Origin: an uncultured Candidatus Saccharibacteria bacterium
Lineage (GTDB): Bacteria > Patescibacteriota > WWE3 > UBA101185 > UBA10185
Assembly: GCA_964643995.1 (NCBI GenBank)
Contig: CAZXUJ010000001.1
Coordinates: 69,622-133,621, forward strand
Length of the DNA stretch: 64,000 nucleotides
Reading direction: 5' to 3'
Below the pieces are notes generated by a model that saw nothing but the letters and a program-made list of their open reading frames with translations, did no database searches and was not told the origin of the DNA. Shown here one piece after another: positions 23,759 to 55,564 of the stretch (the stretch's first letter is position 1; each line of letters starts with the position of its first letter). Made by a program: the position numbers and the translations under genes.

Positions 23759-24832
23759 ATGAACATTTTCAATAAAAGAAAAACTGTCCTTTATATTACG
23801 AACAACACATTGGAAGGTGGTAATGTAATATTCTCGAAAGAACCTATTCTCACTGACTACACAAGCATAACTTGGTCAGATGACGGATTAAACAATTCGT
23901 TAAAACTGCTATCAACGAAAGTGAGGGCAAAAAAAGTAATTTTGACCCTGGGAGAAGGTTTCATCAGCATTGTTAACATAACCCTACCTAACAATCTGCA
24001 ATTAACTGAGGAAAGAGAATACATTTTGCAAGAAATTAAAAAGGTATCACCAGATACGGCAGAAAGTGGAAATTGGAAATTTAAGACAATAGCCTATCAC
24101 ACGGACAAGAAGGAAGTTCTTGCATATTCACCTATAATTGAGAAGTTCCAAATGCTAACTAGTGCATTACAATCCATTAGATGTGCGGTTGAATGTATTG
24201 AGCCAGACATAATTGCCAAAGCAAGGCACCAAAATGCATTAATAGGAGCTGCAATTGAAGCAAAAGATGAAAAAACAGGAACTAATGAGCCTTTGATTCA
24301 CCTTACTAAAAATGTTGCATTAGACATACAAAAGGTAAATAAGATATCAAATAAATGGGTTGCCATCAGCTTTGTAGTATTAATGCTTGGCATAGGAATG
24401 TGGATAATTACCCAAAACACTAACTCAAACGAAAGTACAAACGAATCACAGGAAGTGCCCGTGGAAGTAATGAAAACAAATGAGACAACAGAATCCACTG
24501 GAACACCAGCAAAGATACAGAAAGAAATGTTCAATCCGGAAAATTATTCAATCCAAATTCTTAATGGAACAGGCATAGAAGGATTAGCCGCAAAAACATC
24601 CGGGGAATTCAAAAACATAGGCTTTGCTGATATAGAAATCGGAAATGCAGCTTCGGCTGATGTATTGATTACACAAATATACTTTAAAGCAGAGCCCGAT
24701 ATAACTGAATTAAAAATTATTGTACTGGACACATTGGGACTGCATGAAGGAAATATTCAAAATAAAAGTGAAGAAAACGGTGAATTTGACGTGAAAATAG
24801 TGTTGGGACAAGACTTTGTTAATGTAAAATAA
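23759..24832 (+). CDS. Membrane protein with a C-terminal LytR_C (LytR/CpsA/Psr C-terminal) domain
   Basis: A cytoplasmic N-terminal domain of about 200 aa (weakly PilM/actin-like), one TM (WVAISFVVLMLGIGMWIIT), and the C-terminal block IQILNGTGIEGLAAKTSGEFKNIGFADIEIGNAASADVLITQIYF typical of LytR_C. Confidence 0.55.
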   Translation: MNIFNKRKTVLYITNNTLEGGNVIFSKEPILTDYTSITWSDDGLNNSLKLLSTKVRAKKVILTLGEGFISIVNITLPNNLQLTEEREYILQEIKKVSPDTAESGNWKFKTIAYHTDKKEVLAYSPIIEKFQMLTSALQSIRCAVECIEPDIIAKARHQNALIGAAIEAKDEKTGTNEPLIHLTKNVALDIQKVNKISNKWVAISFVVLMLGIGMWIITQNTNSNESTNESQEVPVEVMKTNETTESTGTPAKIQKEMFNPENYSIQILNGTGIEGLAAKTSGEFKNIGFADIEIGNAASADVLITQIYFKAEPDITELKIIVLDTLGLHEGNIQNKSEENGEFDVKIVLGQDFVNVK

Positions 24833-24944
24833 TAATTGTATTATAATTATCCTATGGATGAACTGCACAGCATGCTACCCTCAAATTGGGAAATGTTATC
24901 AGCCGAAAAAAAAAGAACTAGCAGGGCAGGTTACAAAGTAACTT

Positions 24945-25205
24945 ATGGCAATACCAAAATACAAAAAACATTATGAAGAAATGATTGAATATAATGAAGA
25001 GGTTTTTCGAGCCCTTAAAGAGCTTGATCGAAAATCGCAGGAGTTTAAAGAGATACAACGTAAGGCGGTCAGAATAGTGCATCAATATGAAAATGCACTG
25101 TGTAATCGTACTGAGTCCACAAAGTTTAGTAAATTTTCTGCGGGATTATCGGACAAGTTTATGGAAGAAGTACGACGCGATTATCCAGAGATAGATTACA
25201 CTTAA
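24945..25205 (+). CDS. Hypothetical small charged protein
   Basis: 86-aa ORF, co-directional and 2 nt from the next gene. No motif. Confidence 0.35.
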   Translation: MAIPKYKKHYEEMIEYNEEVFRALKELDRKSQEFKEIQRKAVRIVHQYENALCNRTESTKFSKFSAGLSDKFMEEVRRDYPEIDYT

Positions 25206-25206
25206 A

Positions 25207-26073
25207 GTGTTTTTAAACATACTTAACACATGGGAATTCAACTTAGTGGCTTATCTTTTTTTTGTGGTGCTTTTCTTTCAGTGCTACAAATTAGCAGTAA
25301 AAAGAGCTAAAAGAGATGGAGCAGCTACAATACTTTTACAAGCTATTGCTGGCGGCAGCATTCTTTTGCTAGCACCATTCTTCGACATGTCATTAGCGAA
25401 AGAATCCAAGTATTGGATTTTACTCTTTGTTGCATGCCTTTTTTATGCCCTAAACGATCGGTTACAAACTACAGCAAGAAAACATCTTCCTGTTTCGACA
25501 TATTCGATAATAAATCAATTGACAACAGTTTTTTTAATTTTTATAGGACTAACTATTTTTGGCGAACCTGTAGTTCCTATAAAAATTGCTGGAACAGTGC
25601 TAATTCTCATAGCAAATCTGCTTTTAGTTTATAAAAAAGGTGGTTTGAAAGTTGACCGCAATGTAGTCATATCAATTCTTGCCATACTGTTTTTTTCGAT
25701 TGCAATTTCGGTTGACATAGGTATATCCCAACAGTTTAACTTACCTTTCTACATAATGCTTACCCTTGTGATTCCAGCAATAATGATATGGTTTGCCGAA
25801 AAAATTCCGACAAAAGAAATCTCCGAAGAATACAACTCTCCAGCTAAAAAATACTATATTGTCACTGGAGTTGCTTGGGGGCTTGCAATACTGTTTTCAC
25901 TGAGAGCTTACCAATTTGGAAATGTTACTACAGTTGTACCTTTGCAAGCTACAGCCGTAGTTCTAAATGTCTTAGCGGCATACATACTGCAAAATGAACG
26001 TGAGGATAGGGTTAAGAAAATTGTTGCGGCGTGTTTAGTAGTTTTAGGCGTATATTTTACGGTAAGCTCTTAA
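25207..26073 (+). CDS. DMT-superfamily (EamA-like) permease
   Basis: 288 aa with about 10 TM helices arranged as two 5-TM halves. Confidence 0.55.
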   Translation: MFLNILNTWEFNLVAYLFFVVLFFQCYKLAVKRAKRDGAATILLQAIAGGSILLLAPFFDMSLAKESKYWILLFVACLFYALNDRLQTTARKHLPVSTYSIINQLTTVFLIFIGLTIFGEPVVPIKIAGTVLILIANLLLVYKKGGLKVDRNVVISILAILFFSIAISVDIGISQQFNLPFYIMLTLVIPAIMIWFAEKIPTKEISEEYNSPAKKYYIVTGVAWGLAILFSLRAYQFGNVTTVVPLQATAVVLNVLAAYILQNEREDRVKKIVAACLVVLGVYFTVSS

Positions 26074-27484
26074 TCAACTTTCTCAACTCCTTGCGAAGTT
26101 CTTCAGTAGTAGCCGTATCCACCATTGATAAAAGTCTATCAAGCTTTTCATCAAAACCGGACAAGCTTAGTTCCAGGCTTTTAGTGATGAATATTTTTTT
26201 ATCTTCAGTCTTTAGTAGGCTCTTTTTTTCTTGCGTTGTGAAAAGTTGCTCACGTAGTTTTTCACCCGGCCTTATACCCGTATAAATAATATCCATGTCA
26301 TGCCCCGGAATATAGCCGGAGAGTCGTATTAAGTTTTGCGCTAAATCCAAGATTTTGACTGGACTACCCATATCCAAAACAAATAGTTCTCCCCCATCCC
26401 CTATCGATGCCGCCTTAAGAATCAGCTGTGAGGCTTCTGGTATAGTCATAAAGTACCGAGTCATTCTTTTATCAGTAATAGTCACAGGGCCACCAGATTC
26501 TATTTGCCTCCTAAAGGTTGGAATAACCGACCCGAAGCTATCTAATACATTTCCAAACCTGACCGTCATTATTTTAGTGCCTTTTTTATCGTTATTAATT
26601 TTAGCGATACCCTCTGTGAGTAATTTTGTAGCTCCCATAACCGATTTTGGACGTGCAGCCTTATCAGTGGAAACAACTATAAAACGTTCAGTTTTTGAAT
26701 TTACTGCAGCATTAACTACATTTCTAGTACCTAGCACATTATTTTTTAATGCCTCGGAAATGTTTTCTTCCATCAACGGTACATGTTTGTATGCGGCCGC
26801 ATGAAAAACATAGGTTGGTTCAAATTCCCTAAATACATTTTTGACCTTTTTTTTATCTCGAATGTTAGCTATAACAAAATTTAGGTGCACTTTTGGAAAA
26901 TCATTTTTCAACTCATTGCCAAGATCAAACAATCCGTTTTCCCAGCAATCAAGTAAAATCAATTCATCCGGAGAGTAAGCAGCAATTTGCCTAGAAAGCT
27001 CTGAACCAATAGAACCTGCGGCACCTGTCACCAAAACTTTTTTGCCTTTAAAAAAATTAACTAAATCCGATACATCTGACCTGATTACGGGACGTCCAAG
27101 AAGGTCTTCGACCTGAACCTTGCGCAAAGTTGAAACACGTGCCTTTCCTTCTATGATTTCTCTAACACGAGGTACTATTTTTACATCAAGTTTCAAGTCG
27201 GAACAAATTTTCAAATAATTTGCAATGCGGTCACCTTCCGCAGACGGGATAGCAATAATTACTAAATCAATTTTTCTTTTTTTGGCTAGATATGGTAAGT
27301 CGTTCTTAGCACCTAGCACCTTTTTTGAACCTACGGAAACACCAATTTTATGTTTATCGTCATCGATAAATCCCAAAACATTTAACCCAAGATCAGGGTG
27401 GGACTCAAGCTCATTTAGTACATCTGTACCAGCGGCACCGGCACCAATTATCACAACATTTTTAATTTTCGATTTTATATTCAT
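26057..27484 (-). CDS. Polysaccharide biosynthesis protein of the CapD/PglF/WbpM family (UDP-sugar 4,6-dehydratase), soluble form
   Basis: N-terminal Rossmann VVIIGAGAAGTDVLNEL...GFIDDD, second Rossmann VLVTGAAGSIGSEL, and catalytic FHAAAYKHVPLME (YxxxK). Confidence 0.8.
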   Translation of the reverse strand: MNIKSKIKNVVIIGAGAAGTDVLNELESHPDLGLNVLGFIDDDKHKIGVSVGSKKVLGAKNDLPYLAKKRKIDLVIIAIPSAEGDRIANYLKICSDLKLDVKIVPRVREIIEGKARVSTLRKVQVEDLLGRPVIRSDVSDLVNFFKGKKVLVTGAAGSIGSELSRQIAAYSPDELILLDCWENGLFDLGNELKNDFPKVHLNFVIANIRDKKKVKNVFREFEPTYVFHAAAYKHVPLMEENISEALKNNVLGTRNVVNAAVNSKTERFIVVSTDKAARPKSVMGATKLLTEGIAKINNDKKGTKIMTVRFGNVLDSFGSVIPTFRRQIESGGPVTITDKRMTRYFMTIPEASQLILKAASIGDGGELFVLDMGSPVKILDLAQNLIRLSGYIPGHDMDIIYTGIRPGEKLREQLFTTQEKKSLLKTEDKKIFITKSLELSLSGFDEKLDRLLSMVDTATTEELRKELRKLIKSLP

Positions 27485-28335
27485 AAAGTACTGACCAATT
27501 TCTCTAGACCTTCTTCAAAAGTAACCGATGGAGACCATGCTAAGACCTTATTGGCGAGTAAATTATTACCACGTCTATATCCTCCCCCATCAACATTTGG
27601 ATCAAATTTAATTTTAGCTCGTGTTTTGAGTAATGCTTCTATTTTGTTAGTTAGCTCTAAAATACTTACCTCAGTTCCTGAGCAAATGTTTACAGTACAT
27701 AAGTTTTCGGGAAAATTGAAATCTGCGGCTAGCTCTAGGGCTCTAACAACGTCATCAATATAGACATAGTCTCTTGTCTGACTGCCATCACCATGAATGG
27801 TCAAGTCGGTGCCATTTTTTATACGATCCAAAATAATTGAAACTATTGAGGTAGATTTGTTTGGACTAGGGCCGTATATGTTAGTAAGTCGTAATATAGT
27901 TGCCCTGATATTGTGTGCGAAGGCGTAAAAAGACACAACCTCTTCCGCCATGAGTTTTGACAACCCGTATAAGCTACGAGGCCCTTTTTCATAGGATTCA
28001 TCTATTAACTCCTTATTGTGAGATGCTTTGTATACTTCAAAACTAGACGCCAAAACGAATTTGCATAGCGGATTGGTTTGCACAATTGCTGAAAGTAAAT
28101 TAGCAGTGCCTATGACATTAACATGTAACACATTGGGGTCATTCGGTTTGATAACACTGGCTAAATGTAAAACAACATCACAGTCCTTAACGAAATCAAC
28201 TAGAGTCGATGGATCTAGGAGAGATTGTATTTTTTGATCAAAAAATTTAAGTTCTAAACCCTTGTTGCTGCTTAGTTTTTTTGATAATACACCACCTACA
28301 TAACCTGAGTGACCTGTGATTCCTATAGTTTTCAT
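27481..28335 (-). CDS. NAD-dependent sugar epimerase/dehydratase (SDR extended family)
   Basis: GITGHSGYVGGVL Rossmann motif and YGLSKLMAEE (YxxxK). Confidence 0.8.
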   Translation of the reverse strand: MKTIGITGHSGYVGGVLSKKLSSNKGLELKFFDQKIQSLLDPSTLVDFVKDCDVVLHLASVIKPNDPNVLHVNVIGTANLLSAIVQTNPLCKFVLASSFEVYKASHNKELIDESYEKGPRSLYGLSKLMAEEVVSFYAFAHNIRATILRLTNIYGPSPNKSTSIVSIILDRIKNGTDLTIHGDGSQTRDYVYIDDVVRALELAADFNFPENLCTVNICSGTEVSILELTNKIEALLKTRAKIKFDPNVDGGGYRRGNNLLANKVLAWSPSVTFEEGLEKLVSTL

Positions 28336-28393
28336 AGATACAACAATTATATATTTGATGTGACATATTAGAAAGCGTAAGATTAACCAATAT

Positions 28394-29179
28394 ATGCGAA
28401 AATTTAAGTCTAAAAAGAAGAATTTTGTTTACTTTATTTATAGAATAATTTCCCCAATATTTAATCCAATAAATTTTTATACCGGCACTGTTGGATATGT
28501 TTGGTACTTACGTGATGCCATTAAATACAATAAATTAAGCAGTAATAGCGAAAATAAAATAAAACTTAACACAAACCTGCATCCAATACTTTATGAAAAA
28601 GTTTCATTTACGCCTTTTGATGCACACTATTTTCATCAGCAGTTATGGCTCTTTGAAAAACTTCTTGCGAGAAAACCTAAATCTCATGTAGATATTGGAT
28701 CAACATACGAAATGAGCGGATACATTTCAAAAATATTACCAGCCAAATTTGTCGACATTAGACCAATAGATGTAAATCTTAAGAACCTTGAGGCACTAAA
28801 AGGTGACATCCTAGATTTACCGTTTGAGAACGAATCTGTAGAGTCTGTATCATCACTTAATGTTATCGAGCATATTGGATTAGGGCGATATGGAGACCCA
28901 ATTGATCCTGAAGGAATTAAAAAGGCATGCACTGAACTCCAAAGAGTTTTGGCAAAAAATGGTACCTTATACATCTCAACTCCGATTGGCAAAGAAAAGC
29001 TATGCTTTAATGCCCACAGAATTAGTGATCCTAAAAAGATAATTTCATATTTTCCAGAACTAGAATTGGTGGAGTTTACAGCCATAGATGACGAGGGAAA
29101 ACTTAATGAGAAGGTAACCCCAGAAGACTACCGAAACATGGACTTTTCATGTGGATTTTTTGAATTCACTAGAAGATAG
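28394..29179 (+). CDS. Class I SAM-dependent methyltransferase (Methyltransf_11/DUF268-like)
   Basis: VDIGSTYEMSGY (motif I-like), DILDLPFENESVESV, VIEHIG, AKNGTLYIS. Confidence 0.6.
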   Translation: MRKFKSKKKNFVYFIYRIISPIFNPINFYTGTVGYVWYLRDAIKYNKLSSNSENKIKLNTNLHPILYEKVSFTPFDAHYFHQQLWLFEKLLARKPKSHVDIGSTYEMSGYISKILPAKFVDIRPIDVNLKNLEALKGDILDLPFENESVESVSSLNVIEHIGLGRYGDPIDPEGIKKACTELQRVLAKNGTLYISTPIGKEKLCFNAHRISDPKKIISYFPELELVEFTAIDDEGKLNEKVTPEDYRNMDFSCGFFEFTRR

Positions 29180-30257
29180 TATGAACACATCAAATAACCC
29201 AATAATTTCCGTTGCAGTTACTGCATATAAAAGACCTAAATATACTGAGGATGCAATTAAATCCTTTCTCAATCAAGACTTCAATGACGCAGAAATGCTG
29301 ATACTAGATGACTGTGTGGAAGACTCAAGTGTGAAAGAAATTGTCGAACGGTATGCGGCAAGAGATTCAAGAGTAAGATTGATAAAAAATGAACAGAGAC
29401 TTGGTTATTGTAAAAACTTTTTAAAGTCGTTAACTGAGGCAAAGGGGAAGTTTATTGTCACGTTAGGAGATGATGACATTCTTTTGGACAAAAACGCGCT
29501 AGCTACATACGTACATGTATTCCAAGAACACCCAGATGTTAGTTACATATACTCCAACATGGTTCAGATCAATGAGAATCTAGAAATCGATTATATATTC
29601 GAGTTGTTCGACAAAGACTACTACTGCAAGAATCTTAATGAATCCTTAACAAAAACTTGGCTTAGATCTTGCTTCATTGCAGGAATCGGACTAAGAAATA
29701 ATGTGGACTTTGAGAAGTTGTATCCAAAAGATGATATCTTGTTTCCACAAGTGGAGCTTATAGGTAAAATCTTGGGAAATAGTTCCTCATATGCAATTTC
29801 AAGCAGACTCATCGGAGCACGTGCACATCTGGCACAGCTTGGAAATGTAGCACTTAAGGGCAAAAATATTAAAGGCACTGAAAGGCACTCTGTATACGAG
29901 TTAAATATGGTTTTTGATAGAGTTCAAGATTATTTCAAACAAAATCTTGACATAAAGGACCAGATAGATAGGAGCTTTATCAACTCGTTTTTCGAGACGA
30001 ACCATAAAGCTATTTTTGCAAATGAAAAAATTAGTAATGGAAATGTGCAAATACTCAAAACGTTTATGCAAGCAATCAAAAACAACCCGATGGCACTAGT
30101 CAATATCAACTTCACAGGATACTTTTTAGCTGCATTTCTGCTTCCAAAGAAATTACTATTCAAGATAAAGGAAAAGTATAAAAAGAACAGTTTACAGCAA
30201 TATGGAGATTTACTAGTAACATATAATAAAATGATTCAAGAAATAAAAAATGTATAA
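29151..30257 (+). CDS. Glycosyltransferase family 2
   Basis: ISVAVTAYKRPKYTEDAIKSFLNQDF...LILDD...GYCKN (GT-A DxD-type). Confidence 0.8.
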   Translation: MDFLNSLEDSMNTSNNPIISVAVTAYKRPKYTEDAIKSFLNQDFNDAEMLILDDCVEDSSVKEIVERYAARDSRVRLIKNEQRLGYCKNFLKSLTEAKGKFIVTLGDDDILLDKNALATYVHVFQEHPDVSYIYSNMVQINENLEIDYIFELFDKDYYCKNLNESLTKTWLRSCFIAGIGLRNNVDFEKLYPKDDILFPQVELIGKILGNSSSYAISSRLIGARAHLAQLGNVALKGKNIKGTERHSVYELNMVFDRVQDYFKQNLDIKDQIDRSFINSFFETNHKAIFANEKISNGNVQILKTFMQAIKNNPMALVNINFTGYFLAAFLLPKKLLFKIKEKYKKNSLQQYGDLLVTYNKMIQEIKNV

Positions 30258-30882
30258 AGAGGCAATTGCAAAAAAATACAACTCTGAACTAGAAGGAAAC
30301 CCTTACGGATCTATGGCTACCATAAAAGGGTTTATAAAAGGAGGAACTAGAGTATTGGACGTGGGATGCGCAGGTGGATATTTAGGTAAACACTTCCCTA
30401 ACAATGAATTTTATGGAATTGATGGCAATGAGGTTGCGGTGAAAGAAGCAAAAAAGTCATATAAAGAGGTAGCACTAGTGGATCTTAACAAAATTCCCAA
30501 AGATTTGGTTTTCAGTGAAAAGTTTGATTATGTGATTTTCGCCGATGTTCTGGAACATCTCCTGCATCCAAAGGAAATATTGCAACACTTTAGAAACTAC
30601 CTCAAGGATGGAGGGCAAATAATAGTTTCGGTTCCAAATGTAGCGTTATGGAGGGTTAGGTTAAACCTATTACTGGGCAGATTTGAATACACTGATTATG
30701 GTGTTTTAGATAGAACTCATGTACATTTGTATACATTCAAAAGTACAAGAGAGCTTTTGCAATCTGCAGGACTTAGGGTCAAATACTCTACAGGTGCGGC
30801 CTATGCACTGGGACCCCTAGCTAAACTGCCATCACCTGCCAAGGAATTATTTAGCGTGCACGTTATAATGGTTGCGGAATGA
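30250..30882 (+). CDS. Class I SAM-dependent methyltransferase
   Basis: VLDVGCAGGYLG motif I and FDYVIFADVLEHLLHP. Confidence 0.75.
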   Translation: MYKEAIAKKYNSELEGNPYGSMATIKGFIKGGTRVLDVGCAGGYLGKHFPNNEFYGIDGNEVAVKEAKKSYKEVALVDLNKIPKDLVFSEKFDYVIFADVLEHLLHPKEILQHFRNYLKDGGQIIVSVPNVALWRVRLNLLLGRFEYTDYGVLDRTHVHLYTFKSTRELLQSAGLRVKYSTGAAYALGPLAKLPSPAKELFSVHVIMVAE

Positions 30883-32945
30883 TTAAGGGCTTTATAAAAA
30901 ATCACTACATATTAATATTACTTATACTAATACATGTTGTTACACATCACACATGGATTTTTAACACTGACTATCTGACTTATGGTGATGCAAGAGTATA
31001 TCCCCCACAAATGCAGGCGGATTTAATTCAAGATTCCTTAAAAACTTATGCAACTGGCATTGACTTGGGATCCTTCGAATTAAGCGGAGGTGCCAGCATA
31101 ATTAAATTGGTTCACGGACTACTTGGAAAAATAGGTATTTACTATAATCTTTCCTTCAGGGTTATTTACATGTACCCATATGTATTCTTAGCTCCTGTTG
31201 CAATATACCTACTAACATCAAGATTTATAAAAAACAAATTCGGACTGTTTTGTGCTGGATTAGTATATCTATTTAACACTTACTTCTTGGTACTTCAAAC
31301 AGCCGGGGTAACCATGTTACTGGCAAATATGTGGGGCACTTTTATGCTTGTCTATTACTACAAACTATTCATGGAGAAGAGGTCTGTCTTTAACTATTTA
31401 ATGATTGTTCTTATGTCCCTGCTTGCCTGTATTTACGAATTCAGAATATTCTATCTCGCAATAATTCTGTGTAGCATGCTTGTTATATATAAATTCATTT
31501 TTATAGAACGCAAATGGTCTGACCTGTTTCTCCATGCCAGTATAGGCATAGTTACATTGATTCTAAACTCGTTTTGGTTTTTGCCAGTTATCCTATCAGG
31601 ACAACTTCTGGAGAACAGGCTTTTTTCCAGAGGACTTTTTGGGAGTGGCTACTTTGATTTATTCAGCGCCTTTAATCTTTTTCATAGATTCTGGACTGGA
31701 GGAGCAATAGCTCAGTTTGTAAATCAACCAATACCTATGCTTTTTTGGGCAGTGCCGATTTGTGTAATAATAGCCATCTACAAAAATGAAAAAAACAAGT
31801 GGGCACAATTTTTTGCTGTAATTGCCATATTGGGTGTCTTCTTAACTAAACAAGAAGATTTACCCTTCCCGCACATATATTCGTGGTTATACAATAATTT
31901 CCCTGGGTTTAACGCCTTCAGAGAAGCCTCAAAATTTTACTTTATTACAGCAATAGGATATTCAGTACTGATAGGTTATTTTATGCAGTGGCTATGGGAA
32001 ACTAAATTTACGAACCTGTATCAAAGATATGCACGGGTGCTAGCAAGCATACTTATTGCTGGTATATTTCTTTATAACTCAATTCCCTTGGTTACATTGG
32101 AATTAGGATCACTGTTTATTCCAAGACATATTCCACAGGAATACAAAGTGTACAACGAATTTATAATAAGTCAGGACGATTCCTTCAGAACTCTTTGGGT
32201 GCCCTCTGAATCTAAGTGGGGCTACTACTCAAACAGCAAACCGCGCCTTGGATTTGGACTTATGAGTACAGTAAATTGGGAAAACTTAAAAAACAGGCCC
32301 GACTATGTACAATACGATCTTCCAAAGAATATTATTGCCAACTTATTAATGCAAACGTTTTCGGATAACCTCATAGACGCACACTCGATAAAATATGTTG
32401 TCGTACCAACATATGATTTAGAAAATGACGACAATATTTATATCCATTTTGGGAATGACAGGAACTTCTATCTAAATTTGGTTTCAAATTTAGGCTACCT
32501 GAAACCATTAGATATTGGCACAAGAGACTTAAAAGTATTTCGAAATGACAACTACAAACCACGAATTTACTTAACGAACGAAAAGGAAACCCTTGCAACA
32601 CGTATCCCATATGAAGAAGTTGAGTACACGCTGATTAGTCCAACAGAATATATAATAAAACTTAAAGACCTAACAACACCAGTTTATTTAAATTTTTCAG
32701 AAAAGTTCGATTCTGGCTGGGCACTAAAAGATAATAACTACTTTTTGGATGAGCTAGATCACTTTTCAAACGAGTATAACCTAAACACCTTCGTACTTGA
32801 CGAAAAGTATGAAAATAGAGAACTGACTCTGTATTACAAACCACAAGCATACTTCGATGCCGGAATACTTGTATCTCTAGGAGCACTAGCTACACTGATA
32901 ACAAGTGCGTTTGGCATAGTTATTTTCAGCAAAATAAGGAAATGA
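30879..32945 (+). CDS. Large polytopic membrane protein, putative GT-C-fold glycosyltransferase/polymerase
   Basis: 688 aa with about 12 N-terminal TM helices and a 270-aa C-terminal extracytoplasmic domain. ATGA overlap with its neighbours inside the glycan operon. The assignment is structural inference only. Confidence 0.4.
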   Translation: MIKGFIKNHYILILLILIHVVTHHTWIFNTDYLTYGDARVYPPQMQADLIQDSLKTYATGIDLGSFELSGGASIIKLVHGLLGKIGIYYNLSFRVIYMYPYVFLAPVAIYLLTSRFIKNKFGLFCAGLVYLFNTYFLVLQTAGVTMLLANMWGTFMLVYYYKLFMEKRSVFNYLMIVLMSLLACIYEFRIFYLAIILCSMLVIYKFIFIERKWSDLFLHASIGIVTLILNSFWFLPVILSGQLLENRLFSRGLFGSGYFDLFSAFNLFHRFWTGGAIAQFVNQPIPMLFWAVPICVIIAIYKNEKNKWAQFFAVIAILGVFLTKQEDLPFPHIYSWLYNNFPGFNAFREASKFYFITAIGYSVLIGYFMQWLWETKFTNLYQRYARVLASILIAGIFLYNSIPLVTLELGSLFIPRHIPQEYKVYNEFIISQDDSFRTLWVPSESKWGYYSNSKPRLGFGLMSTVNWENLKNRPDYVQYDLPKNIIANLLMQTFSDNLIDAHSIKYVVVPTYDLENDDNIYIHFGNDRNFYLNLVSNLGYLKPLDIGTRDLKVFRNDNYKPRIYLTNEKETLATRIPYEEVEYTLISPTEYIIKLKDLTTPVYLNFSEKFDSGWALKDNNYFLDELDHFSNEYNLNTFVLDEKYENRELTLYYKPQAYFDAGILVSLGALATLITSAFGIVIFSKIRK

Positions 32946-34672
32946 GTTACTTATACAACTATATTATAGGGTTACTCGAGGATAACACCGGTATTTTTTA
33001 TACACATTGGCTACTAAAAAACCCACAATTTAGTAGTTATATAGGATACCCCACTGGACAACCAGTAGACTTTACCAACACAAGCGAACCGTTATTTCTT
33101 CGAGGTTTTTTCTTCCTAATGGCGAACTTTAATACGGTAGCTTTCTACAACATTTTTATATTGGTATCACTTGGACTTGTGTTGATAACCACATATCTGC
33201 TTTTCAATCATTTCACGAAAACCAAAATAGTAAGCATTATGCTAGCAACACTCTTTACACTCTCCCCATATTTTTATTATCAATCAAGGTCACATGTAAC
33301 TCTTATTCAGTTTTGGCTAGTAGTTTTGTTCGTATATTTTTTGATACAAGCTAAAAGTTTTAAACACTTTTTTTGGCTTGGGCTATATCTTACCCTTGTA
33401 ACTTTAGTTAGTAACTATTTTGCATACTTCTGTTTGTTGATACTAGGTGGTTACTTTTTTGCAAAACAGATAACATACAAAATCTATGGTCTAAAGTATT
33501 GGAGTATGCAAGTGTGGCTGAAATATCTGTTTTGCCTAATCACTTTCTTTGTGACAACCGTTCCAATACTGATGCCGTATTTTAGAGCCTTTTATGGGAC
33601 CAATGACAGCAGTAACCAAACAGAGAGCACTGATTCAAAAGGACTGAATAGAACACTGGAAGACTTTTTTATATTTTCTTCACGACCGTGGTATTTTGTA
33701 CTACCCTCAATAGATAATCCATTTGTTGGTAACGTCACCAACGAAACAGTAAGGTGGCTACAAAATGATTGGGGATATTTCCTTACCCAAAACTACTTTA
33801 AAAGTGAGCACAGTGCTAGCTTTCTCGGCTGGATTAACATTGTGATGGCATCCTACGGAGTTTATCTAGTTATCAGAAGACTTAGAGAAAAACAACTTAC
33901 CACGCCAACAAGTATAGAAGACTCTACTGAATTAAAAATTCTTGCACTCGTGCTAGTTGCAATTTTCTTGGGCATTCTTACGCTTCCTCCATATATTACT
34001 TTGGGTGGAATAAAACTTCATATGCCAAGTTACATCTTATATAAGGTGTTTCCAATGTTCAGAGTACTGACAAGATTAGGTACTGTTATTTTACTTATTG
34101 TGCTAGTCCCCACTGCATATACGTACAAGGAATCTATAACTAAAATAAAGGAGAAAAAGGGAGTATTGGTAAGCACACTACTTATACTGCCGATATATGC
34201 TTTTAGTTTAGCAGAGTTTTTTGTTCCAATAAAACTTACAGATGTGTCACAAATGCCTGAAGTGTTTGAATATGTGAAAACGCAGACACCACAAGATTCA
34301 GTTATTGCGGTGTTTCCATACAGTAGAACAAACACTGCGATGTTCTGGATTAAAGATTTTCAAAGAGCAGTTGTTAATCCTAGAGAGTTCAAGGATCCAA
34401 AGAGAGGTTTTAACTCTGAGAATTTTACAAAGGAGTTAACTAAGTGTGAAGGATTAAGATCTGCAGCTCACTTAGGGGTGAATTATATTGTGGTATTTCC
34501 AAATGCGAATGAAAACACAGAAATTTTTGATAAAACCGCCGGACTTGAAAAAATTGCAGAATTCAGTGCAAGTACAACAAAACAGCGAGTTTACAAATAT
34601 AGCAGCATTGGGTATGCTGGTGCTAACGAAGGCGCAGTAGTATACAAGTTAACGAAAGTCACCTGCGAGTAA
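32942..34672 (+). CDS. Second polytopic membrane protein, putative GT-C-fold glycosyltransferase
   Basis: 576 aa with 10 or more TM helices and a C-terminal soluble domain. 4-nt overlap with the upstream gene. Confidence 0.4.
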   Translation: MSYLYNYIIGLLEDNTGIFYTHWLLKNPQFSSYIGYPTGQPVDFTNTSEPLFLRGFFFLMANFNTVAFYNIFILVSLGLVLITTYLLFNHFTKTKIVSIMLATLFTLSPYFYYQSRSHVTLIQFWLVVLFVYFLIQAKSFKHFFWLGLYLTLVTLVSNYFAYFCLLILGGYFFAKQITYKIYGLKYWSMQVWLKYLFCLITFFVTTVPILMPYFRAFYGTNDSSNQTESTDSKGLNRTLEDFFIFSSRPWYFVLPSIDNPFVGNVTNETVRWLQNDWGYFLTQNYFKSEHSASFLGWINIVMASYGVYLVIRRLREKQLTTPTSIEDSTELKILALVLVAIFLGILTLPPYITLGGIKLHMPSYILYKVFPMFRVLTRLGTVILLIVLVPTAYTYKESITKIKEKKGVLVSTLLILPIYAFSLAEFFVPIKLTDVSQMPEVFEYVKTQTPQDSVIAVFPYSRTNTAMFWIKDFQRAVVNPREFKDPKRGFNSENFTKELTKCEGLRSAAHLGVNYIVVFPNANENTEIFDKTAGLEKIAEFSASTTKQRVYKYSSIGYAGANEGAVVYKLTKVTCE

Positions 34673-34676
34673 ATTA

Positions 34677-35051
34677 ATGAGTGTAAATAACCTAATTGTA
34701 ATACTTTTAGTAATAATGCTTATTGGGATAGTTTTTTTATCAACTAAAAGAAGAATTGAATTGACGGTTCTAGTTTCAATGTTAACAGGGATTACTATGC
34801 TTTACATTGTGAAATTACCGTTTCTTATTAATACTATCAGTATTGTATTTATACTCTTACTACTTATCTGGGCGTTTAAAATTTCTCGAGATATTATCTA
34901 CATCGGAGCTATATTTTTTATATTGTGTAGTGCTGTTTTTCTTCAGTTACAATTTGAACTACCTGCTAAATTTTCGGGGACACTCAGTTTCTTTTTACTG
35001 TGTATTGGTGTAGCTAAGGACATACTTTATGAAAAAACTTTTTCTAAGTAG
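34677..35051 (+). CDS. Small 4-TM membrane protein
   Basis: 124 aa and strongly hydrophobic. Lies within the operon. Confidence 0.4.
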   Translation: MSVNNLIVILLVIMLIGIVFLSTKRRIELTVLVSMLTGITMLYIVKLPFLINTISIVFILLLLIWAFKISRDIIYIGAIFFILCSAVFLQLQFELPAKFSGTLSFFLLCIGVAKDILYEKTFSK

Positions 35052-37116
35052 CATTCTCTGCCTTGCGATGCTATCAATAGGATTTTTCAAAACAACAGCT
35101 GCTGATAAGACAGGCTATTTTGCAAGGCTTCTATCCAGCTGGGATATAGATATATATACGCTCAATGAAAATGTAGAAACTAAGAAATGGGAACTACCAA
35201 AAGACAACGAAGACGACTTTCTACTCCTAACCACCAATCAAATGACACTGATTGGAATGAATCTAGATATGCTACTTTCATACAATAAAGTGATATTAGT
35301 ATGTGACACTAGCGTGGAGTTAAGTAAAGAACTTGCGTGTAGTTTTGATGGTATTACTACCACTTTTCAAAAAACAGAGTTGGCATCGGACAATAGTAAT
35401 AGTATTTTGAACATATTTCTTGGAAACACCAATTTGATAGTTATCCCAGAAGCCGGATTTGTACTACCTAAAAATACCGCTGAAACTACTGCCTATTTTG
35501 AAGCACTTGCTATCTCAAGAGAAAATAAGGCACAAAACAGTGAGGAGAACACTAGGACCGATACTGCAAAGCCTCAATCTGTAGTTATCGAAAACTCAGA
35601 ATTGATAGGTTATTTAGTATTTTTATTACTATTCAATTTTATAGTCGTAATGCCGATAAAAAAATTAAGCAGTACTGGCCGAGTAACATTACGAAATATG
35701 TACACTCAGCAACTTGGCGAACTTAAGAGATTCGTTGATATGTACGAGCCTTTTTCAAAATATTTAGTTACGATGGGGATCTGTGTAAACATCATTGTAG
35801 GAGGTGTTTTTCTGCTGAACAACGGGTTAAGGCTATTACTAGATGCGGCCAAAACACTTCTAGCAACACCAACATTAGCAGACATTGTTGGTTTGGAAAT
35901 CTTCAGTTCCCGATATGCACTAGTATTAGTAATAGTAAATATTCTGTTGCTTGGCGTTTTAAGCCCCATGGTTATTGATAGAGTAATCGCAAACCTAAAC
36001 ATAAAGATGCTGTTACCACAGCACAAAATAAAAGATGATATAGCCAAGTGGATAGTGATAGTTTTCGGTATAGCGGGAATTATGATTGCTTCTACTGGGA
36101 CAATTGCTGAAACACATCATTTATTAACTGCAGTTTTACTGGTTATAACCTATATACTTTTTGTGTCACATGAGTTTAAATTCACGGTTAAAGAAAAATT
36201 ACTGGCTACATGTGTTATAGCAACTGTGGCAATTGTTGTACCAAGTTATAGTTACTACTCTCAGGAGATTTCGATACATATAACTGAAGAAAAATTGTTC
36301 AGTGACTCTGAGAGAATAGTTGTATTGCCATACAAAAGAGTTATAACTAAAAACACAAAAATAAAAGAGTTCACTACAGGAATTGATTTTCCAATCTTTA
36401 TTGAACACCAACTTATATACCACCCAAGTTACCCGAACATTGTCAACAAAAATATTGAAAGCATTGATCTAACAAATAACTACATGGTAGTAACTAAAGG
36501 TAAAAAAGACTACATCAACACCTTGCTTTCATTTCCAATATTACTAAAACACGTTGAGGCAAATGGTGTAAGTGAGTTCTTTTATACCGAAACAAACTTT
36601 GCACAAACAGATACCGTAGCAGTCAAAATGACAATAGATTGTTCAAAAGATACGTCAGCAAAGGAAATATATCTAGAAAAGTATAGGTTATCTACGGACC
36701 CCGAACAATTTAACTTACTTATTTTTCCAGGATGCACACCAATGCAAAAGGAACTAACATATACAGCTCCAATTGATACAAGATATATGCAACAACCTGG
36801 TATCTTTCAAATTCAAAACTTCTCAAAAGTTAGATTTAGTAAAATAGTGCTCCAAGTCAATGGCGTTGATGTGGAACCAAAGTATATTAAGACTCCAAAC
36901 GACTACCAACAACTTGGCACAGGACAAAATAAGCTAGACTCCACAGAACTGTATGTTTATTCCCAAGAAACTGAGGATGATACAAAGTATAAAAACACGA
37001 CCAAGGACGTAAACATAGGTTCACTCATAAATACTGCCCTAGAAACTATGAATATAGAAAATAATTTCGTAATGTGGTCAAGTGCAGAAAATGCAATAAT
37101 TAAAAACGTACAGTAA
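35029..37116 (+). CDS. Hypothetical secreted/membrane protein (signal peptide, central 6-TM block, C-terminal domain)
   Basis: 695 aa. The signal peptide is MKKLFLSSILCLAMLSIGFF, and the hydrophobic block spans about aa 190-400. Confidence 0.45.
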   Translation: MKKLFLSSILCLAMLSIGFFKTTAADKTGYFARLLSSWDIDIYTLNENVETKKWELPKDNEDDFLLLTTNQMTLIGMNLDMLLSYNKVILVCDTSVELSKELACSFDGITTTFQKTELASDNSNSILNIFLGNTNLIVIPEAGFVLPKNTAETTAYFEALAISRENKAQNSEENTRTDTAKPQSVVIENSELIGYLVFLLLFNFIVVMPIKKLSSTGRVTLRNMYTQQLGELKRFVDMYEPFSKYLVTMGICVNIIVGGVFLLNNGLRLLLDAAKTLLATPTLADIVGLEIFSSRYALVLVIVNILLLGVLSPMVIDRVIANLNIKMLLPQHKIKDDIAKWIVIVFGIAGIMIASTGTIAETHHLLTAVLLVITYILFVSHEFKFTVKEKLLATCVIATVAIVVPSYSYYSQEISIHITEEKLFSDSERIVVLPYKRVITKNTKIKEFTTGIDFPIFIEHQLIYHPSYPNIVNKNIESIDLTNNYMVVTKGKKDYINTLLSFPILLKHVEANGVSEFFYTETNFAQTDTVAVKMTIDCSKDTSAKEIYLEKYRLSTDPEQFNLLIFPGCTPMQKELTYTAPIDTRYMQQPGIFQIQNFSKVRFSKIVLQVNGVDVEPKYIKTPNDYQQLGTGQNKLDSTELYVYSQETEDDTKYKNTTKDVNIGSLINTALETMNIENNFVMWSSAENAIIKNVQ

Positions 37117-37122
37117 AAGATT

Positions 37123-38292
37123 ATGAAAATCGCATTTTATATAACTACAATTTTAGAACAGGGAGGTGGAAGTCAGGAATATCTTATAACAACAGCTAAA
37201 AAGCTTTCGGAACTTTATGGTCATAATGTTGACATTGTAGGGCTTGATGACAAATATACAGTTACATACTTAAGATTTTTCTTATGTATTTTTTATCTTA
37301 AATACGTGCGCAAATCGCATTTTTACAATGAAAGTCTCACCTCAATAAGGGCAAGGTTAGGAAAAGTTAAGTATGTGAAGTGCAAAAGCTTTAAGGAACT
37401 GAGGGATACCTTAAGTAAATATGACGTAGTATATAGTAAAAACGAGTTGTTAGAGGCTTTATTATTTAGTGGAGTTATAGGTTTTGAAAACATTGGTCCC
37501 GTAATATTCGCATGCGTAACAAGCATAAACTTTACTGGCAGTACTTCACCCCAAGCAATAATACGAAACAAATTATACAACGGAAGTGTTTACAAATTTC
37601 TTTGTCGCAATGTAAAAGCCTTTCACGTTCTAAATTCACACGACGAACATTTCCTACAAAAACTTTTCCCTAGCAAAAGAATATATAGGATTTGCCCATC
37701 ATTTAATTTCGACGAGTTTAAAAGACTTTCCAACGAGTATCCTGCAAACTTTGAGTTCGATGGTTCCGCAATAAACATAATTTCAGTGGGTAGACTAAGT
37801 ATTCAAAAAGGTACTGAAGAACTAATCAAACTTATAGACGAAATAAATGAACAGCAGCTTAATAACAAAGTTGTATGGTACATAGTCGGAAAAGGTGAAG
37901 AAGCTGCAAAGGTCGAGGCACTAGTCGCTAGATGGAAAAATGTAAAATATCTTGGTTACATAGAGAATAAATTCCTTCCAAGTATCCTAGAAAACATGAG
38001 TTTATATATATCCCTAAGCAAAGGTGAAACTTTTGGATATACTATCGTCGAAGCAAATACTTTTGAAGTACCAGTTATATCCTACGATCTTTCTGGACCA
38101 CGAGAACTTGTGGAACAAGGAAAAAATGGTTATTTAGCAAAAGATTATGAGGACTTCAAAAGAGCACTTATAGACTTTTTAGAAGGTGATCTTCACTTTA
38201 CGGATGTTGAGAAAGTAGTGCGGGATAGGCTGGATGCTAGGATAATTTATGGCAAAATATTAAAAATGTTCGAGGAGGTTTACAATAAATAG
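37123..38292 (+). CDS. Glycosyltransferase family 4 (GT-B)
   Basis: C-terminal EX7E-type motif ETFGYTIVEANTFEVPVISYDLSGPRELVEQGKNGYL. Confidence 0.8.
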   Translation: MKIAFYITTILEQGGGSQEYLITTAKKLSELYGHNVDIVGLDDKYTVTYLRFFLCIFYLKYVRKSHFYNESLTSIRARLGKVKYVKCKSFKELRDTLSKYDVVYSKNELLEALLFSGVIGFENIGPVIFACVTSINFTGSTSPQAIIRNKLYNGSVYKFLCRNVKAFHVLNSHDEHFLQKLFPSKRIYRICPSFNFDEFKRLSNEYPANFEFDGSAINIISVGRLSIQKGTEELIKLIDEINEQQLNNKVVWYIVGKGEEAAKVEALVARWKNVKYLGYIENKFLPSILENMSLYISLSKGETFGYTIVEANTFEVPVISYDLSGPRELVEQGKNGYLAKDYEDFKRALIDFLEGDLHFTDVEKVVRDRLDARIIYGKILKMFEEVYNK

Positions 38293-38293
38293 T

Positions 38294-39154
38294 ATGAATG
38301 AAGAAATACTCAACCTAGAAGGGTGCACAAAACGCAATAATAACCTTTACACATTTGACTCCAAGTTCTCTAGCGACCTTAAATTCTCAATTGAGAAATG
38401 GGACTCATGGTATAAAGAAAAGCTAAAGTCAGGATCATACAAAAAAGATTTCTACTACTATAAAGAAAATTATTTTCCACTTACTATTGCGCAACTTGAA
38501 AAAAGTAAGCCACTAAATAAGGATATTGTATTTTTGGAGATTGGAAGTGGAGAATTCTTTTTGGGAAATCTAATTGCAAACAGAGTTAAGTTGGTCATAG
38601 GAGTTGATCTGTGCCCTACAGCCCTAAAGATAGCCCAAGAAATGTTCGAAAATGCTGGAATAACAAATTATTTACTGATCCAAGCGGATATACTTGATAT
38701 GCCACTAAAAGATAATGTGATAGACCTAATATATGGTGGAGGAACTATTGAACATTTCAAAGACACACAAACCTGCATAGACGAACTATACAGAGTTCTT
38801 AAGCCAACAGGTGTGAGTTTCAACACTGTGCCCTACCTAAATATTGGGTCACTAACCTATCGGCAAATTTGGGGCAACATACCAAACTTCCCCATTTTGC
38901 GAGAACTAGCAGAACTTATACATATAAAAATACTTGGTGGAAAACACATGGTCTTCGGATATGAGTTTTCTTTTACTATCCCGCACTTACGCAAACTACA
39001 CGAAAAGGCAGGGTTCAAGAAAATTGAAATTACAAAGTTTGATGTGCACCTAAAGTTTGAGTATATACCTCATTGGCTTAGAAAACCTTTCATATGGTTA
39101 TCGTCAAACGTTGCAGCTTTTTGGCCAATGATCAAAGCTGTTGCTGTAAAATAA
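38294..39154 (+). CDS. Class I SAM-dependent methyltransferase
   Basis: VFLEIGSGEF motif I, GGGTIEHF and LKPTGVSF. Confidence 0.7.
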   Translation: MNEEILNLEGCTKRNNNLYTFDSKFSSDLKFSIEKWDSWYKEKLKSGSYKKDFYYYKENYFPLTIAQLEKSKPLNKDIVFLEIGSGEFFLGNLIANRVKLVIGVDLCPTALKIAQEMFENAGITNYLLIQADILDMPLKDNVIDLIYGGGTIEHFKDTQTCIDELYRVLKPTGVSFNTVPYLNIGSLTYRQIWGNIPNFPILRELAELIHIKILGGKHMVFGYEFSFTIPHLRKLHEKAGFKKIEITKFDVHLKFEYIPHWLRKPFIWLSSNVAAFWPMIKAVAVK

Positions 39155-39291
39155 TAAAAATATACTTGCAGCAAAAAGTATGACTGATGATAGATTTAGA
39201 CATGATGCTCGAAAAATACTTAGGAACTTCGATCAAAAAGCTTTAAAAATTATGGAAGGTGCTTAAGGGCTAAAGCATTCCACTGCTCCGG

Positions 39292-39840
39292 TTATAGATT
39301 AGAAGATTCAAATTGAGTGGGTCTAACTATAACAGCATACTCCACCTGCACCCGCCTAGTTGCTTCTTCTAGCCCCTCGCAATCACCTTGTAATAACCAG
39401 TCTTTCATGAGTTGAACCATTTCGGTTAGTGTTATTTTGTGACTATAGAGCAACCTTGCTAGGCCTGCGGGGACCCCAGAGTATGATTGAATATCCGGAG
39501 TATCGCCTAGACTTGGCAAAGACCTTACACCAGGCCAGGTACCTCTTCCATGCTGATCAGCTTTAGCTATTGCAGCAACCCTTGTTAACAGGTCTTCGGC
39601 TCTAGCAGCAGACTCAGGCGTCGATTGCTCCCAACAGTAGGTTGTGGATCTATGTTACCTTCTGTACACATTTTCGCCAAAGTTGGATCGGCAACCTCTA
39701 TACCAAGCAATCTTTTTCCCCTAATTAGTTCATCCAAACCAGCATCTCTAGCATTTAGCAAGATATAGTCATAAATATCAGGAATAGCAGGTTTCTCTAT
39801 TGAAACCCAATTTTCATCTTTTATTGATTATCGAAAGTCC
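39292..39840 (-). pseudogene. Frameshifted, start-less gene remnant
   Basis: Minus-strand translation gives ...SIEKPAIPDIYDYILLNARDAGLDELIRGKRLLGIEVADPTLAKM...LLL [frameshift] AEDLLTRVAAIAKADQHGRGTWPGV...VEYAVIVRPTQFESSNL. There is no start codon, one frameshift at least, and only a 75-aa ORF survives. Confidence 0.35.
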
Positions 39841-39949
39841 ATTTATAACAATTAATAGATCGTTAGATTTGATTTCTATCTTTGAAAAGTTGTTACTCAA
39901 AGACATAAACATAAATGTAGTCAACAGAATAACAGAAAAACACACTGGG

Positions 39950-53700: not shown

Positions 53701-53703
53701 ACT

Positions 53704-55491: not shown

Positions 55492-55564
55492 CTGTATTAC
55501 TCCTTGGGCTACAGCCCATGTATATTTTTTCCCTATGATTTAGACAAAATGCTACTAAGCAAAA

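Follow-up and report, generated by a model that had tools for sequence, protein, structure and literature searches.

Extracytoplasmic glycosylation that depends on GT-C glycosyltransferases is a well-known kind of system. In GtrA/GtrB/GtrC, CsbB/GtcA/YfhO, GacI/J/K/L and ArnC/ArnEF/ArnT, a GT2 glycosyltransferase, a small protein with several transmembrane (TM) segments and a polytopic GT-C protein with an outer domain are encoded together (PMC8035078, PMC11127046); such multi-component systems also have a sugar-nucleotide-modifying short-chain dehydrogenase/reductase (SDR) nearby and an acidic residue in an outer loop of the GT-C protein. Here we describe a locus with the same elements in 64,000 nucleotides of contig CAZXUJ010000001.1 (assembly GCA_964643995.1; this whole stretch is called the window) from an uncultured Candidatus Saccharibacteria bacterium. 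A first-pass annotation had proposed a 13-kb glycan-biosynthesis locus with three S-adenosylmethionine (SAM) methyltransferases, and the positions of the open reading frames (ORFs) and their Pfam matches bear this out. At its centre lie two tandem large membrane proteins, A1 and A2, followed by a small membrane protein of 124 aa and a further membrane protein, A3. The locus departs from the Gtr, CsbB, Gac and Arn systems in that its GT2 is not of the GtrB/CsbB/DPM1 class and its small protein is unrelated to GtrA and SMR proteins; it also has two GT-C proteins in tandem, a methyltransferase tightly coupled to a GT-C gene and the extra 695-aa membrane protein.

We lean slightly towards reading the locus as a multi-component extracytoplasmic glycosylation system in which A1 and A2 transfer lipid-linked sugars to a cell-envelope glycopolymer. 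What is new is, on the one hand, two GT-C families without a curated model that are recognisable here only through structure prediction, that of A1 being widespread in the candidate phyla radiation (CPR), and, on the other, a co-inherited GT2–methyltransferase–GT-C block and its accessory membrane modules. A further novelty, judged from aligned family members, is an architectural variant: a GT-C protein that lacks TM1 throughout its family.

Fold and topology of A1 and A2

Neither A1 nor A2 has a Pfam or NCBIfam match at threshold or a PDB sequence match, searched as single sequences or as 40-sequence profiles. Their homologues (more than 335 for A1 and 84 for A2) have the same length. Those of A1 carry no precomputed Pfam domain except LysM or CBM_4_9 fused to a few long members, and some of those of A2 bear a precomputed DUF6311 mark, weak or faint wherever its strength is reported; hmmscan against current Pfam-A did not reproduce DUF6311 (PF19830) on the A2 family. 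AlphaFold2 models of both proteins were confident, with a predicted local distance difference test score (pLDDT) of 90.5 and a predicted TM-score (pTM) of 0.89 for A1, and 89.6 and 0.91 for A2. When these models were compared with the PDB using Foldseek, only GT-C enzymes were returned at E<=1e-3, with probability 1.0 and TMq 0.38-0.52. The best match of A1 was AftD (6w98; E 2e-8, TMq 0.49), followed by PglB, STT3 and AglB, with AftA at E ~0.08; that of A2 was STT3 (8age; E 2.4e-6, TMq 0.52), and DPY19, AglB, AftD, ALG12, PglB and ArnT were also matched. The first matches outside the GT-C enzymes were transporters of the major facilitator superfamily type, at E >=0.09 and TMq ~0.1. We predict that A1 and A2 are GT-C-fold proteins of the GT-C_A class, in families that have no curated Pfam or NCBIfam model. 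The first-pass view that the tandem proteins are GT-C rather than Wzx/Wzy is upheld by the Foldseek probability of 1.0 and by the lack of any Wzy_C or Polysacc_synt match; A1, A2, A3 and the small protein all lack Pfam matches to Wzy/O-antigen ligase (PF04932) and Wzx (PF01943). Since Foldseek returned GT-C enzymes only and transporters at E >=0.09, no confident match to a Wzy, ligase, flippase or transporter family emerged for A1 or A2.

The accompanying suggestion that the pair resembles oligosaccharyl- or polymerase-type GT-C enzymes fared less well as regards the oligosaccharyltransferases (OSTs), to whose family neither protein belongs. The WWDxG motif is found in none of 80 members (WWD[YWF]G in 0/40 for A1 and 0/40 for A2), and neither protein matches the STT3 model (PF02516) even at E<=1-10, nor the YfhO (PF09586) or PMT/PMT_2 (PF02366/PF13231) models. 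A2 resembles STT3, AglB and PglB in its GT-C_A fold, its outer C-terminal domain and its top Foldseek match; it differs from them in the points just given, in having no DxD (also absent from the window A1) and in lacking TM1. A1 has the layout of AftD, with an N-terminal GT-C core of 11 TM segments, an outer soluble domain and a C-terminal TM region, and carbohydrate-binding modules (CBMs) are carried by AftD and by long A1 relatives. The two proteins nevertheless share only 11% sequence identity, and A1 is half the size, has one C-terminal TM segment where AftD has five, lacks an acyl-carrier-protein partner and comes from a host that, unlike the mycobacterial owners of AftD, is not a mycolate bacterium. 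The AftD model (PF11847 GT-C_AftD) does not match the window A1 and matches 3 of 40 relatives, with a best E of 0.0065, below threshold; the likeness of A1 to AftD is seen in the predicted structure only. Against PTPS_related (PF10131), the window A1 scored 0.53, and the best value was 2.3e-4, in 3 of 40 relatives. In the literature searched on DUF6311, on GT-C proteins in Patescibacteria and on CPR OSTs, we found no description of the A1 or A2 families, of a GT-C family without TM1 or of the co-inherited block and its accessory modules.

Aligned as profiles with hhalign, A1 and A2 match each other with 95% probability (E 2.9e-8, 414 columns), with FPGFNAFREASKF of A1 lying opposite FPMFRVL-R-G of A2; this alignment shows the two to be distant paralogues. 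We derived the layout of A1 from predicted helices, hydropathy and the positive-inside pattern of short loops. Its N terminus is inside and is followed by 11 TM segments, an outer domain at residues 400-654 with a beta-rich end, a last TM segment at 655-687 and a basic cytoplasmic tail. D37 lies after TM1 in outer loop 1 and is invariant in 40/40 members, 28-44 residues from the N terminus. Outer loops also hold the invariant R189 of a YEFR turn (in which E187 is conserved in the consensus), R348, K352 and others, and the FPGFNAFREASKF motif, residues 341-353, is invariant.

A2 has 10 TM segments and an outer C-terminal domain at 427-576, and it aligns with A1 from TM2 onward, with neither TM1 nor a C-terminal TM segment. 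Its first 64 residues stand for outer loop 1 and bear a near-invariant E13-D14: an (E/G/D)-D motif is present in 39/40 members, 8-21 residues from the N terminus and ahead of any hydrophobic segment, the first of which begins at residue >=30 across the family. No in-frame upstream extension of A2 is possible in the window sequence. Because the motif precedes any hydrophobic segment and no extension exists, TM1 is absent from A2, as it is throughout the family; A2 is thus a predicted GT-C core that lacks this segment as well as the C-terminal helix. The even number of TM segments places both the N-terminal tail (net charge -2) and the C-terminal domain outside, which is self-consistent, and His, Arg and Glu residues are invariant in outer loops. 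The C-terminal TM segment of A1 was considered as a stand-in for the missing TM1 of A2; this is unsupported, as the segment is present in 39/40 A1 members with or without A2 and runs in the opposite direction. The first-pass annotation had asked for a DxD or ExD in loop 1: a conserved acidic residue does occur at the position of outer loop 1 in each protein (D37; E13-D14), but there is no DxD in the window proteins, and we place these residues outside from topology, not from coordinates.

Recurrence of the locus and its membrane partners

A pattern scan with one genome per species yielded 78 loci with A1 relatives, and neighbourhoods were counted over 76 loci; these counts are lower bounds because many contigs are short. 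About 60% of the record titles are CPR/Patescibacteria, and the named lineages include WWE3, Saccharibacteria, Levy-, Moran-, Ames-, Roizman- and Woesebacteria and the cultured Minisyncoccus archaeiphilus (L061). Two of the 78 titles are archaeal (Pacearchaeota and Methanoperedenaceae), and a Methanococcoides protein is also a close A1 relative. Around 20 A1-bearing third-party annotation (TPA) assemblies (L005, L009, L011, L012, L025 and others) are titled 'uncultured Gammaproteobacteria' or 'Bdellovibrionales'; these titles may be unreliable, as the gene content resembles that of CPR loci. A GT2 gene lies within 5 kb of A1 in at least 56/76 loci, as does a GT4 gene (at least 56/76), and a class I methyltransferase gene does so in at least 31-34/76, being directly adjacent on the same strand in at least 16-18/76.

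Gene order is preserved in other loci. A WWE3 genome repeats GT4–GT2–methyltransferase–A1–A2–(small gene)–A3, with a Wzx gene adjoining, and locus L082 repeats methyltransferase–A1–A2–small–A3. The GT2, methyltransferase and A1 proteins encoded at the same positions in WWE3 are 48, 57 and 43% identical to those of the window. The same block (window 29151-32945) recurs in Methanococcoides sp. AM1 (L086; CAAGSW010000003.1, 8325-12166) at 45, 53 and 40% identity, surrounded by dTDP-rhamnose genes, several GT2 genes and a Wzx gene; the archaeal block is about as close to that of the window as is the nearest CPR relative, WWE3. Identity of 40-53% to the Methanococcoides block suggests that a module for surface glycans has passed between the two domains, from CPR bacteria to archaea or the reverse. 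Since order and sequence are kept across domains, the three genes travel and presumably work together, and GT2–methyltransferase–A1 behaves as a portable functional unit, one that plausibly adds a methylated capping or side-chain sugar.

Domain fusions bear on the acceptor. Five long A1 relatives (~1,000-1,270 aa), the cultured Minisyncoccus protein among them, bear CBM_4_9, in calls at, just below or above the Pfam gathering score, and two other long relatives (~840 aa) bear LysM; these fusions favour a glycan as acceptor. CBMs are a trait that these A1 relatives share with AftD and, as is suspected, with YfhO. Some genomes have two full-length A1 paralogues (L008, L028, L044), in tandem in L044. 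Many clusters with A1 or A2 (L080, L082, L085, L087, L088) also encode other GT-C or ligase proteins, such as YfhO or Wzy_C or Wzy_C-PMT fusions of ~1,000 aa, so that CPR glycan loci often stack several outer-face transferases.

In most related loci, an iterative search with the 124-aa protein found a single match, encoded on the same strand as A1. Because such searches can drift with TM proteins, we checked this family by profile–profile comparison. It matched the C-terminal TM bundle of a family of ~350 aa with 96% probability (hhalign; E 2.6e-9), whereas control comparisons with the A1, A2 and A3 profiles gave <=1.3%. The ~350-aa proteins (loci L007-L017, L025, L027, L030, L031, L034, L044 and L064) begin with an anchor, continue with an outer domain of ~170 aa and end in a bundle of 4-5 TM segments, with a mean pairwise identity of 36% and no Pfam match; their genes start <=71 nt from the end of A1, mostly overlapping it, in 15/17 aligned loci. 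On this profile evidence and its controls, the 124-aa protein is a recurrent companion of A1, a member of a membrane module found repeatedly beside A1-type genes. By analogy, it is a possible lipid-sugar flippase or a possible activator or anchor of the GT2.

A3 accompanies A2 in 4/7 A2-bearing loci (the window, L002/L085, L081 and L082). Hydropathy divides its 695 aa into a signal or anchor, an outer domain of ~160 aa, ~6 TM segments and an outer C-terminal domain of ~290 aa, and conserved cysteines lie at positions 92, 104, 538 and 569 in the two outer domains. A word-indexed search with A3 found only itself, and a full HMMER search found 85 remote, full-length, unannotated relatives; neither A3 nor the 124-aa protein had a Pfam, NCBIfam or PDB sequence match at threshold. 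Kinship with A1 or with the ~350-aa family was rejected (hhalign, 4.8% and 2.9%, respectively). At 6995-8308 and 52402-54303, the window encodes a thioredoxin-domain protein and DsbD-like membrane proteins, of which one carries a DUF3179 fusion. They suggest an extracytoplasmic thiol–disulfide system, which fits the four conserved cysteines of A3.

Gene complement and surroundings

All 11 genes are present as ORFs in the mechanical ORF list of the window, two on the minus strand and nine on the plus strand, with a divergent spacer of 58 bp between the two groups. The plus-strand genes span 28394-39154, and neighbours either overlap by 4-29 nt or lie 1-6 nt apart, which fits a single operon. 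What had been called an 11-gene operon is right as to the total of 11, which counts the divergent pair; the plus-strand operon itself has nine. A scan for promoters and terminators found no enrichment in the locus over shuffled sequence.

Table 1 Genes of the locus, with coordinates in the window and the basis of each assignment
Product	Position	Strand	Basis
Dehydratase, 475 aa	26057-27484	-	Polysacc_synt_2 1.5e-108, CoA_binding_3 1.6e-14
SDR epimerase/4-ketoreductase, 284 aa	27481-28335	-	Epimerase PF01370 3e-39
SAM methyltransferase 1, 261 aa	28394-29179	+	DUF268 7e-14, Methyltransf_11 3e-6
GT2	29151-30257	+	Glycos_transf_2 5.6e-21
SAM methyltransferase 2, 210 aa	30250-30882	+	Methyltransf_23/MetW/UbiG-like (Pfam)
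A1, predicted GT-C-fold membrane protein, 688 aa	30879-32945	+	AlphaFold2 and Foldseek
A2, predicted GT-C-fold membrane protein, 576 aa	32942-34672	+	AlphaFold2 and Foldseek
Small membrane protein, 124 aa, 4-5 hydrophobic segments	34677-35051	+	Hydropathy
A3, membrane protein, 695 aa	35029-37116	+	Hydropathy
GT4, 389 aa	37123-38292	+	Glycos_transf_1 5.9e-28
SAM methyltransferase 3, 286 aa, final operon gene	38294-39154	+	Methyltransf_11 9.6e-18, Methyltransf_31 1.6e-16

Pfam agrees with the earlier calls of a divergent CapD/PglF-like dehydratase and SDR, a GT2 and a GT4. The dehydratase is a UDP-N-acetylhexosamine (UDP-HexNAc) 4,6-dehydratase of the PglF/CapD/WbpM type with an N-terminal domain like CoA_binding_3; hydropathy finds no hydrophobic segment in it, so that it is a soluble enzyme of this type, lacking the usual N-terminal TM helices. 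The PseB and FnlA models of NCBIfam match it below their cut-offs. The SDR gene overlaps the dehydratase gene by 4 nt and is translationally coupled to it, and NCBIfam models of 4-keto-sugar reductases and epimerases match its product only weakly, none of them reaching its cut-off. By analogy with the established pathways of the WbpM/WreV type, the pair would most simply yield a UDP-6-deoxy-HexNAc like N-acetylquinovosamine or N-acetylfucosamine (QuiNAc/FucNAc), and such a product is more likely than bacillosamine because the locus has no aminotransferase or acetyltransferase.

The three methyltransferases are class I enzymes with different Pfam affinities (DUF268/Methyltransf_11, Methyltransf_23/MetW-like and Methyltransf_11/31, in order), and the stop codon of the second overlaps the start of A1. 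The GT2 ORF opens with GTG and overlaps the upstream gene by 29 nt. The true start is probably the ATG at 29181, which gives a protein of 358 aa, exactly as long as its WWE3 orthologue. This GT2 is of an SpsA/PglI-like class, with GalT1, SpsA and PglI as nearest PDB relatives and a weak NCBIfam match to PgfS (3.5e-4); near its C terminus, residues 313-345 form a weakly hydrophobic, polybasic segment. The PDB relatives of the GT4 are Gtf1, PglA and PimA-type enzymes, and the GT4 is 37.5% identical to its orthologue in the WWE3 cluster.

Downstream of the operon, ~790 bp (39155-39949) contain no ORF longer than 75 aa and no Rfam match; GC content is 45-50% at 39300-39700, against ~35% in the surroundings, and two short minus-strand ORFs (39292-39519 and 39585-39761) resemble fragments of a broken gene. 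On the left flank (23759-26073), a LytR_C-domain protein of 357 aa, with no match to the LCP catalytic domain, an EamA/DMT transporter and an 86-aa ORF whose conservation extends to the WWE3 locus directly adjoin the glycan genes; the EamA protein is the sole transporter-like candidate close to the cluster. Further envelope-sugar genes lie elsewhere in the window, at 51195-52424 and 54490-57489: one for an NAGPA-type phosphodiester glycosidase and a minus-strand group in which a 333-aa protein without annotation is encoded together with a GT4 (55565-56773) and a PIG-L-type de-N-acetylase (56734-57489).

The first-pass annotation had put forward a giant Thr/Ser-rich surface protein as the glycosylated substrate. 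This protein (1,958 aa; 13868-19744, minus strand) has fn3- and LamG-like domains, 25% Ser+Thr, 40 NxS/T sequons and an N-terminal anchor. Its gene is contiguous and co-oriented with those of an ATP-binding cassette (ABC) ATPase (12945-13868) and a 729-aa MacB/FtsX-type permease (10808-12997), and together (10808-19744) they appear to form an operon of their own, separate from the glycan locus. It lies ~6.3 kb away, beyond five unrelated genes (for a histidine kinase, a response regulator, a tyrosyl-tRNA synthetase, the LytR_C protein and the EamA transporter). Across 87 related loci, the 10 kb around the GT-C genes, or as much of it as a shorter contig offered, contained no homologue of it. 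The proposal thus gained no link to the locus, and the giant protein as a co-inherited substrate is rejected, there being no homologue in any related locus searched; a role as substrate in general is possible, though nothing here supports it.

Proposed mechanism and alternatives

Gene content, the GT-C fold, the loop-1 acidic residues, topology, synteny and domain fusions come from computation; we infer the lipid-linked donor, the identity of the sugars, the glycan nature of the acceptor and what the accessory proteins do. In the proposed scheme, the dehydratase and SDR would make a 6-deoxy-HexNAc-type sugar in the cytoplasm, beside other sugars; GT2 and GT4 would load sugars on a polyprenyl-phosphate carrier, and the three SAM methyltransferases would O-methylate sugars. 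The lipid-linked sugars would then be flipped across the membrane, where A1 and A2 would move them to an acceptor at the outer face, most likely a cell-envelope glycopolymer. The 124-aa protein may serve as flippase or GT2 anchor, and A3 may handle the acceptor. Each GT-C match named above that has a characterised structure takes its sugar from a polyprenyl-phosphate-linked donor, as known GT-C enzymes do on the outer side of the membrane (PMC8035078, PMC11127046), and the CBMs of AftD, Emb and GT136 enzymes bind acceptor polysaccharide (PMC11127046; PMC8035078). Known systems have a GtrA-type flippase or a GacJ-type membrane partner, which the small TM module parallels (PMC8035078). The evidence on the acceptor, which is indirect, favours a cell-envelope glycan over the neighbouring giant protein.

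Several observations weigh against this scheme. The GtrB/CsbB/DPM1 class of GT2 normally makes polyprenyl-phosphate-monosaccharide donors. A role of the GT2 of this locus as a polyprenyl-phosphate synthase of the GtrB/DPM1 type is unsupported: its PDB and NCBIfam relatives are SpsA, GalT1 and PglI, with neither GtrB nor DPMS among the former, and it has no TM hairpin. The 64-kb window encodes no initiating phosphoglycosyltransferase and no Wzx, ABC or multidrug and toxin extrusion (MATE) flippase; the 124-aa protein has no Pfam match and resembles neither GtrA nor SMR proteins. No CBM or LysM domain is recognisable in the window A1. Finally, we know of no characterised GT-C enzyme that lacks TM1, which makes the activity of A2 uncertain.

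The alternatives are not mutually exclusive. In line with the first-pass annotation, A1, A2 or both could be protein glycosyltransferases, like PMT, PgfM1/PgfM2 or OSTs, that attach a methylated glycan to surface proteins such as those of an S-layer or of pili, or to the giant protein; we consider this doubtful, and less favoured than a glycan acceptor. The best fold matches of A2 include STT3, the C-mannosyltransferase DPY19 and AglB, yet the TM-scores to OSTs (0.4-0.52) are no better than that to the glycan-acting AftD, WWDxG is absent from both families and no STT3, PMT or PMT_2 model matches. The Pgf system of Streptococcus mutans comprises the GT2 PgfS, the epimerase PgfE and the GT-C proteins PgfM1 and PgfM2, and its substrates are Thr-rich surface adhesins. 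The locus recalls it in gene set, as GT2, an epimerase-type SDR and two GT-C-type membrane proteins occur together; Pgf, however, has no methyltransferases, and the weak PgfS match of the GT2 is the sole match to it. The Ser/Thr content, sequons and anchor of the giant protein would suit a glycosylated protein, and A1 relatives occur in archaea, where glycosylation of surface proteins is the rule. Set against these points are the separate operon of the giant protein with its MacB-type transporter, the absence of homologues near A1 or A2 in the 87 other loci, and the CBM_4_9 and LysM fusions, which indicate carbohydrate acceptors.

A role for A1, A2 or both as polymerases or en-bloc transferases, which would act on Wzx-flipped polyprenyl-diphosphate-oligosaccharides like a Wzy or ligase with a GT-C fold, seems unlikely. 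GT2, GT4 and the methyltransferases would then build a repeat unit rather than a monosaccharide donor, and both glycosyltransferases do belong to classes that elongate lipid-diphosphate-oligosaccharides (matches like PglI, WcaA, PglA and PglJ). In the syntenic WWE3 and Methanococcoides clusters, a Wzx-type (Polysacc_synt) flippase is encoded and Wzy is absent from the vicinity of A1, and the window has no Wzy_C protein, but other loci with A1 or A2 carry the large Wzy_C or Wzy_C-PMT proteins that could fill this role, and the window itself lacks both Wzx and an initiating phosphoglycosyltransferase. The mycobacterial GT-C enzymes Emb and Aft elongate polymers (PMC11127046), although they use monosaccharide donors and not repeat units. 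Less likely still, A2 and possibly A3 could be non-catalytic, A2 being a degenerate TM1-less paralogue that binds the acceptor or acts as a scaffold for A1. TM1 is missing across the whole A2 family, A2 is translationally coupled to A1 in the window, L002, L003 and L082, and a review offers the speculation that a small GT-C enzyme might depend on another protein to recognise its acceptor (PMC8035078). The near-invariant ED motif and the invariant outer-loop His, Arg and Glu argue instead for catalysis, and A2 also occurs without an adjacent high-scoring A1 (L080, L081, L083).

A bolder extension of the envelope-glycopolymer reading, which we hold to be about as improbable as a polymerase role, is that A1, A2, the small TM module and A3 form an undescribed envelope-glycosylation machine of the CPR, shared by transfer with DPANN and methanogenic archaea. 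Its portable GT2–methyltransferase–GT-C unit would install methylated sugars outside the membrane, and A2 would work only in a hetero-complex in which a partner (the small protein, A3 or the C-terminal helix of A1) fills the position of TM1.

CPR bacteria, or Patescibacteria, account for a large part of bacterial diversity and spend their lives attached to their hosts, yet very little is known of their surface chemistry. The present locus leaves current understanding in place and carries a known kind of system onto ground that is still poorly charted. The two GT-C families and their co-inherited GT2 and methyltransferase partners offer handles for annotation and for experiments, and the A1-type family spans many CPR lineages, with the cultured Minisyncoccus archaeiphilus among its bearers. 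The inter-domain identity suggests that CPR bacteria and archaea exchange surface-glycan modules and, if the hetero-complex envelope machine is real, the surface glycan that it builds could determine recognition between episymbiont and host.

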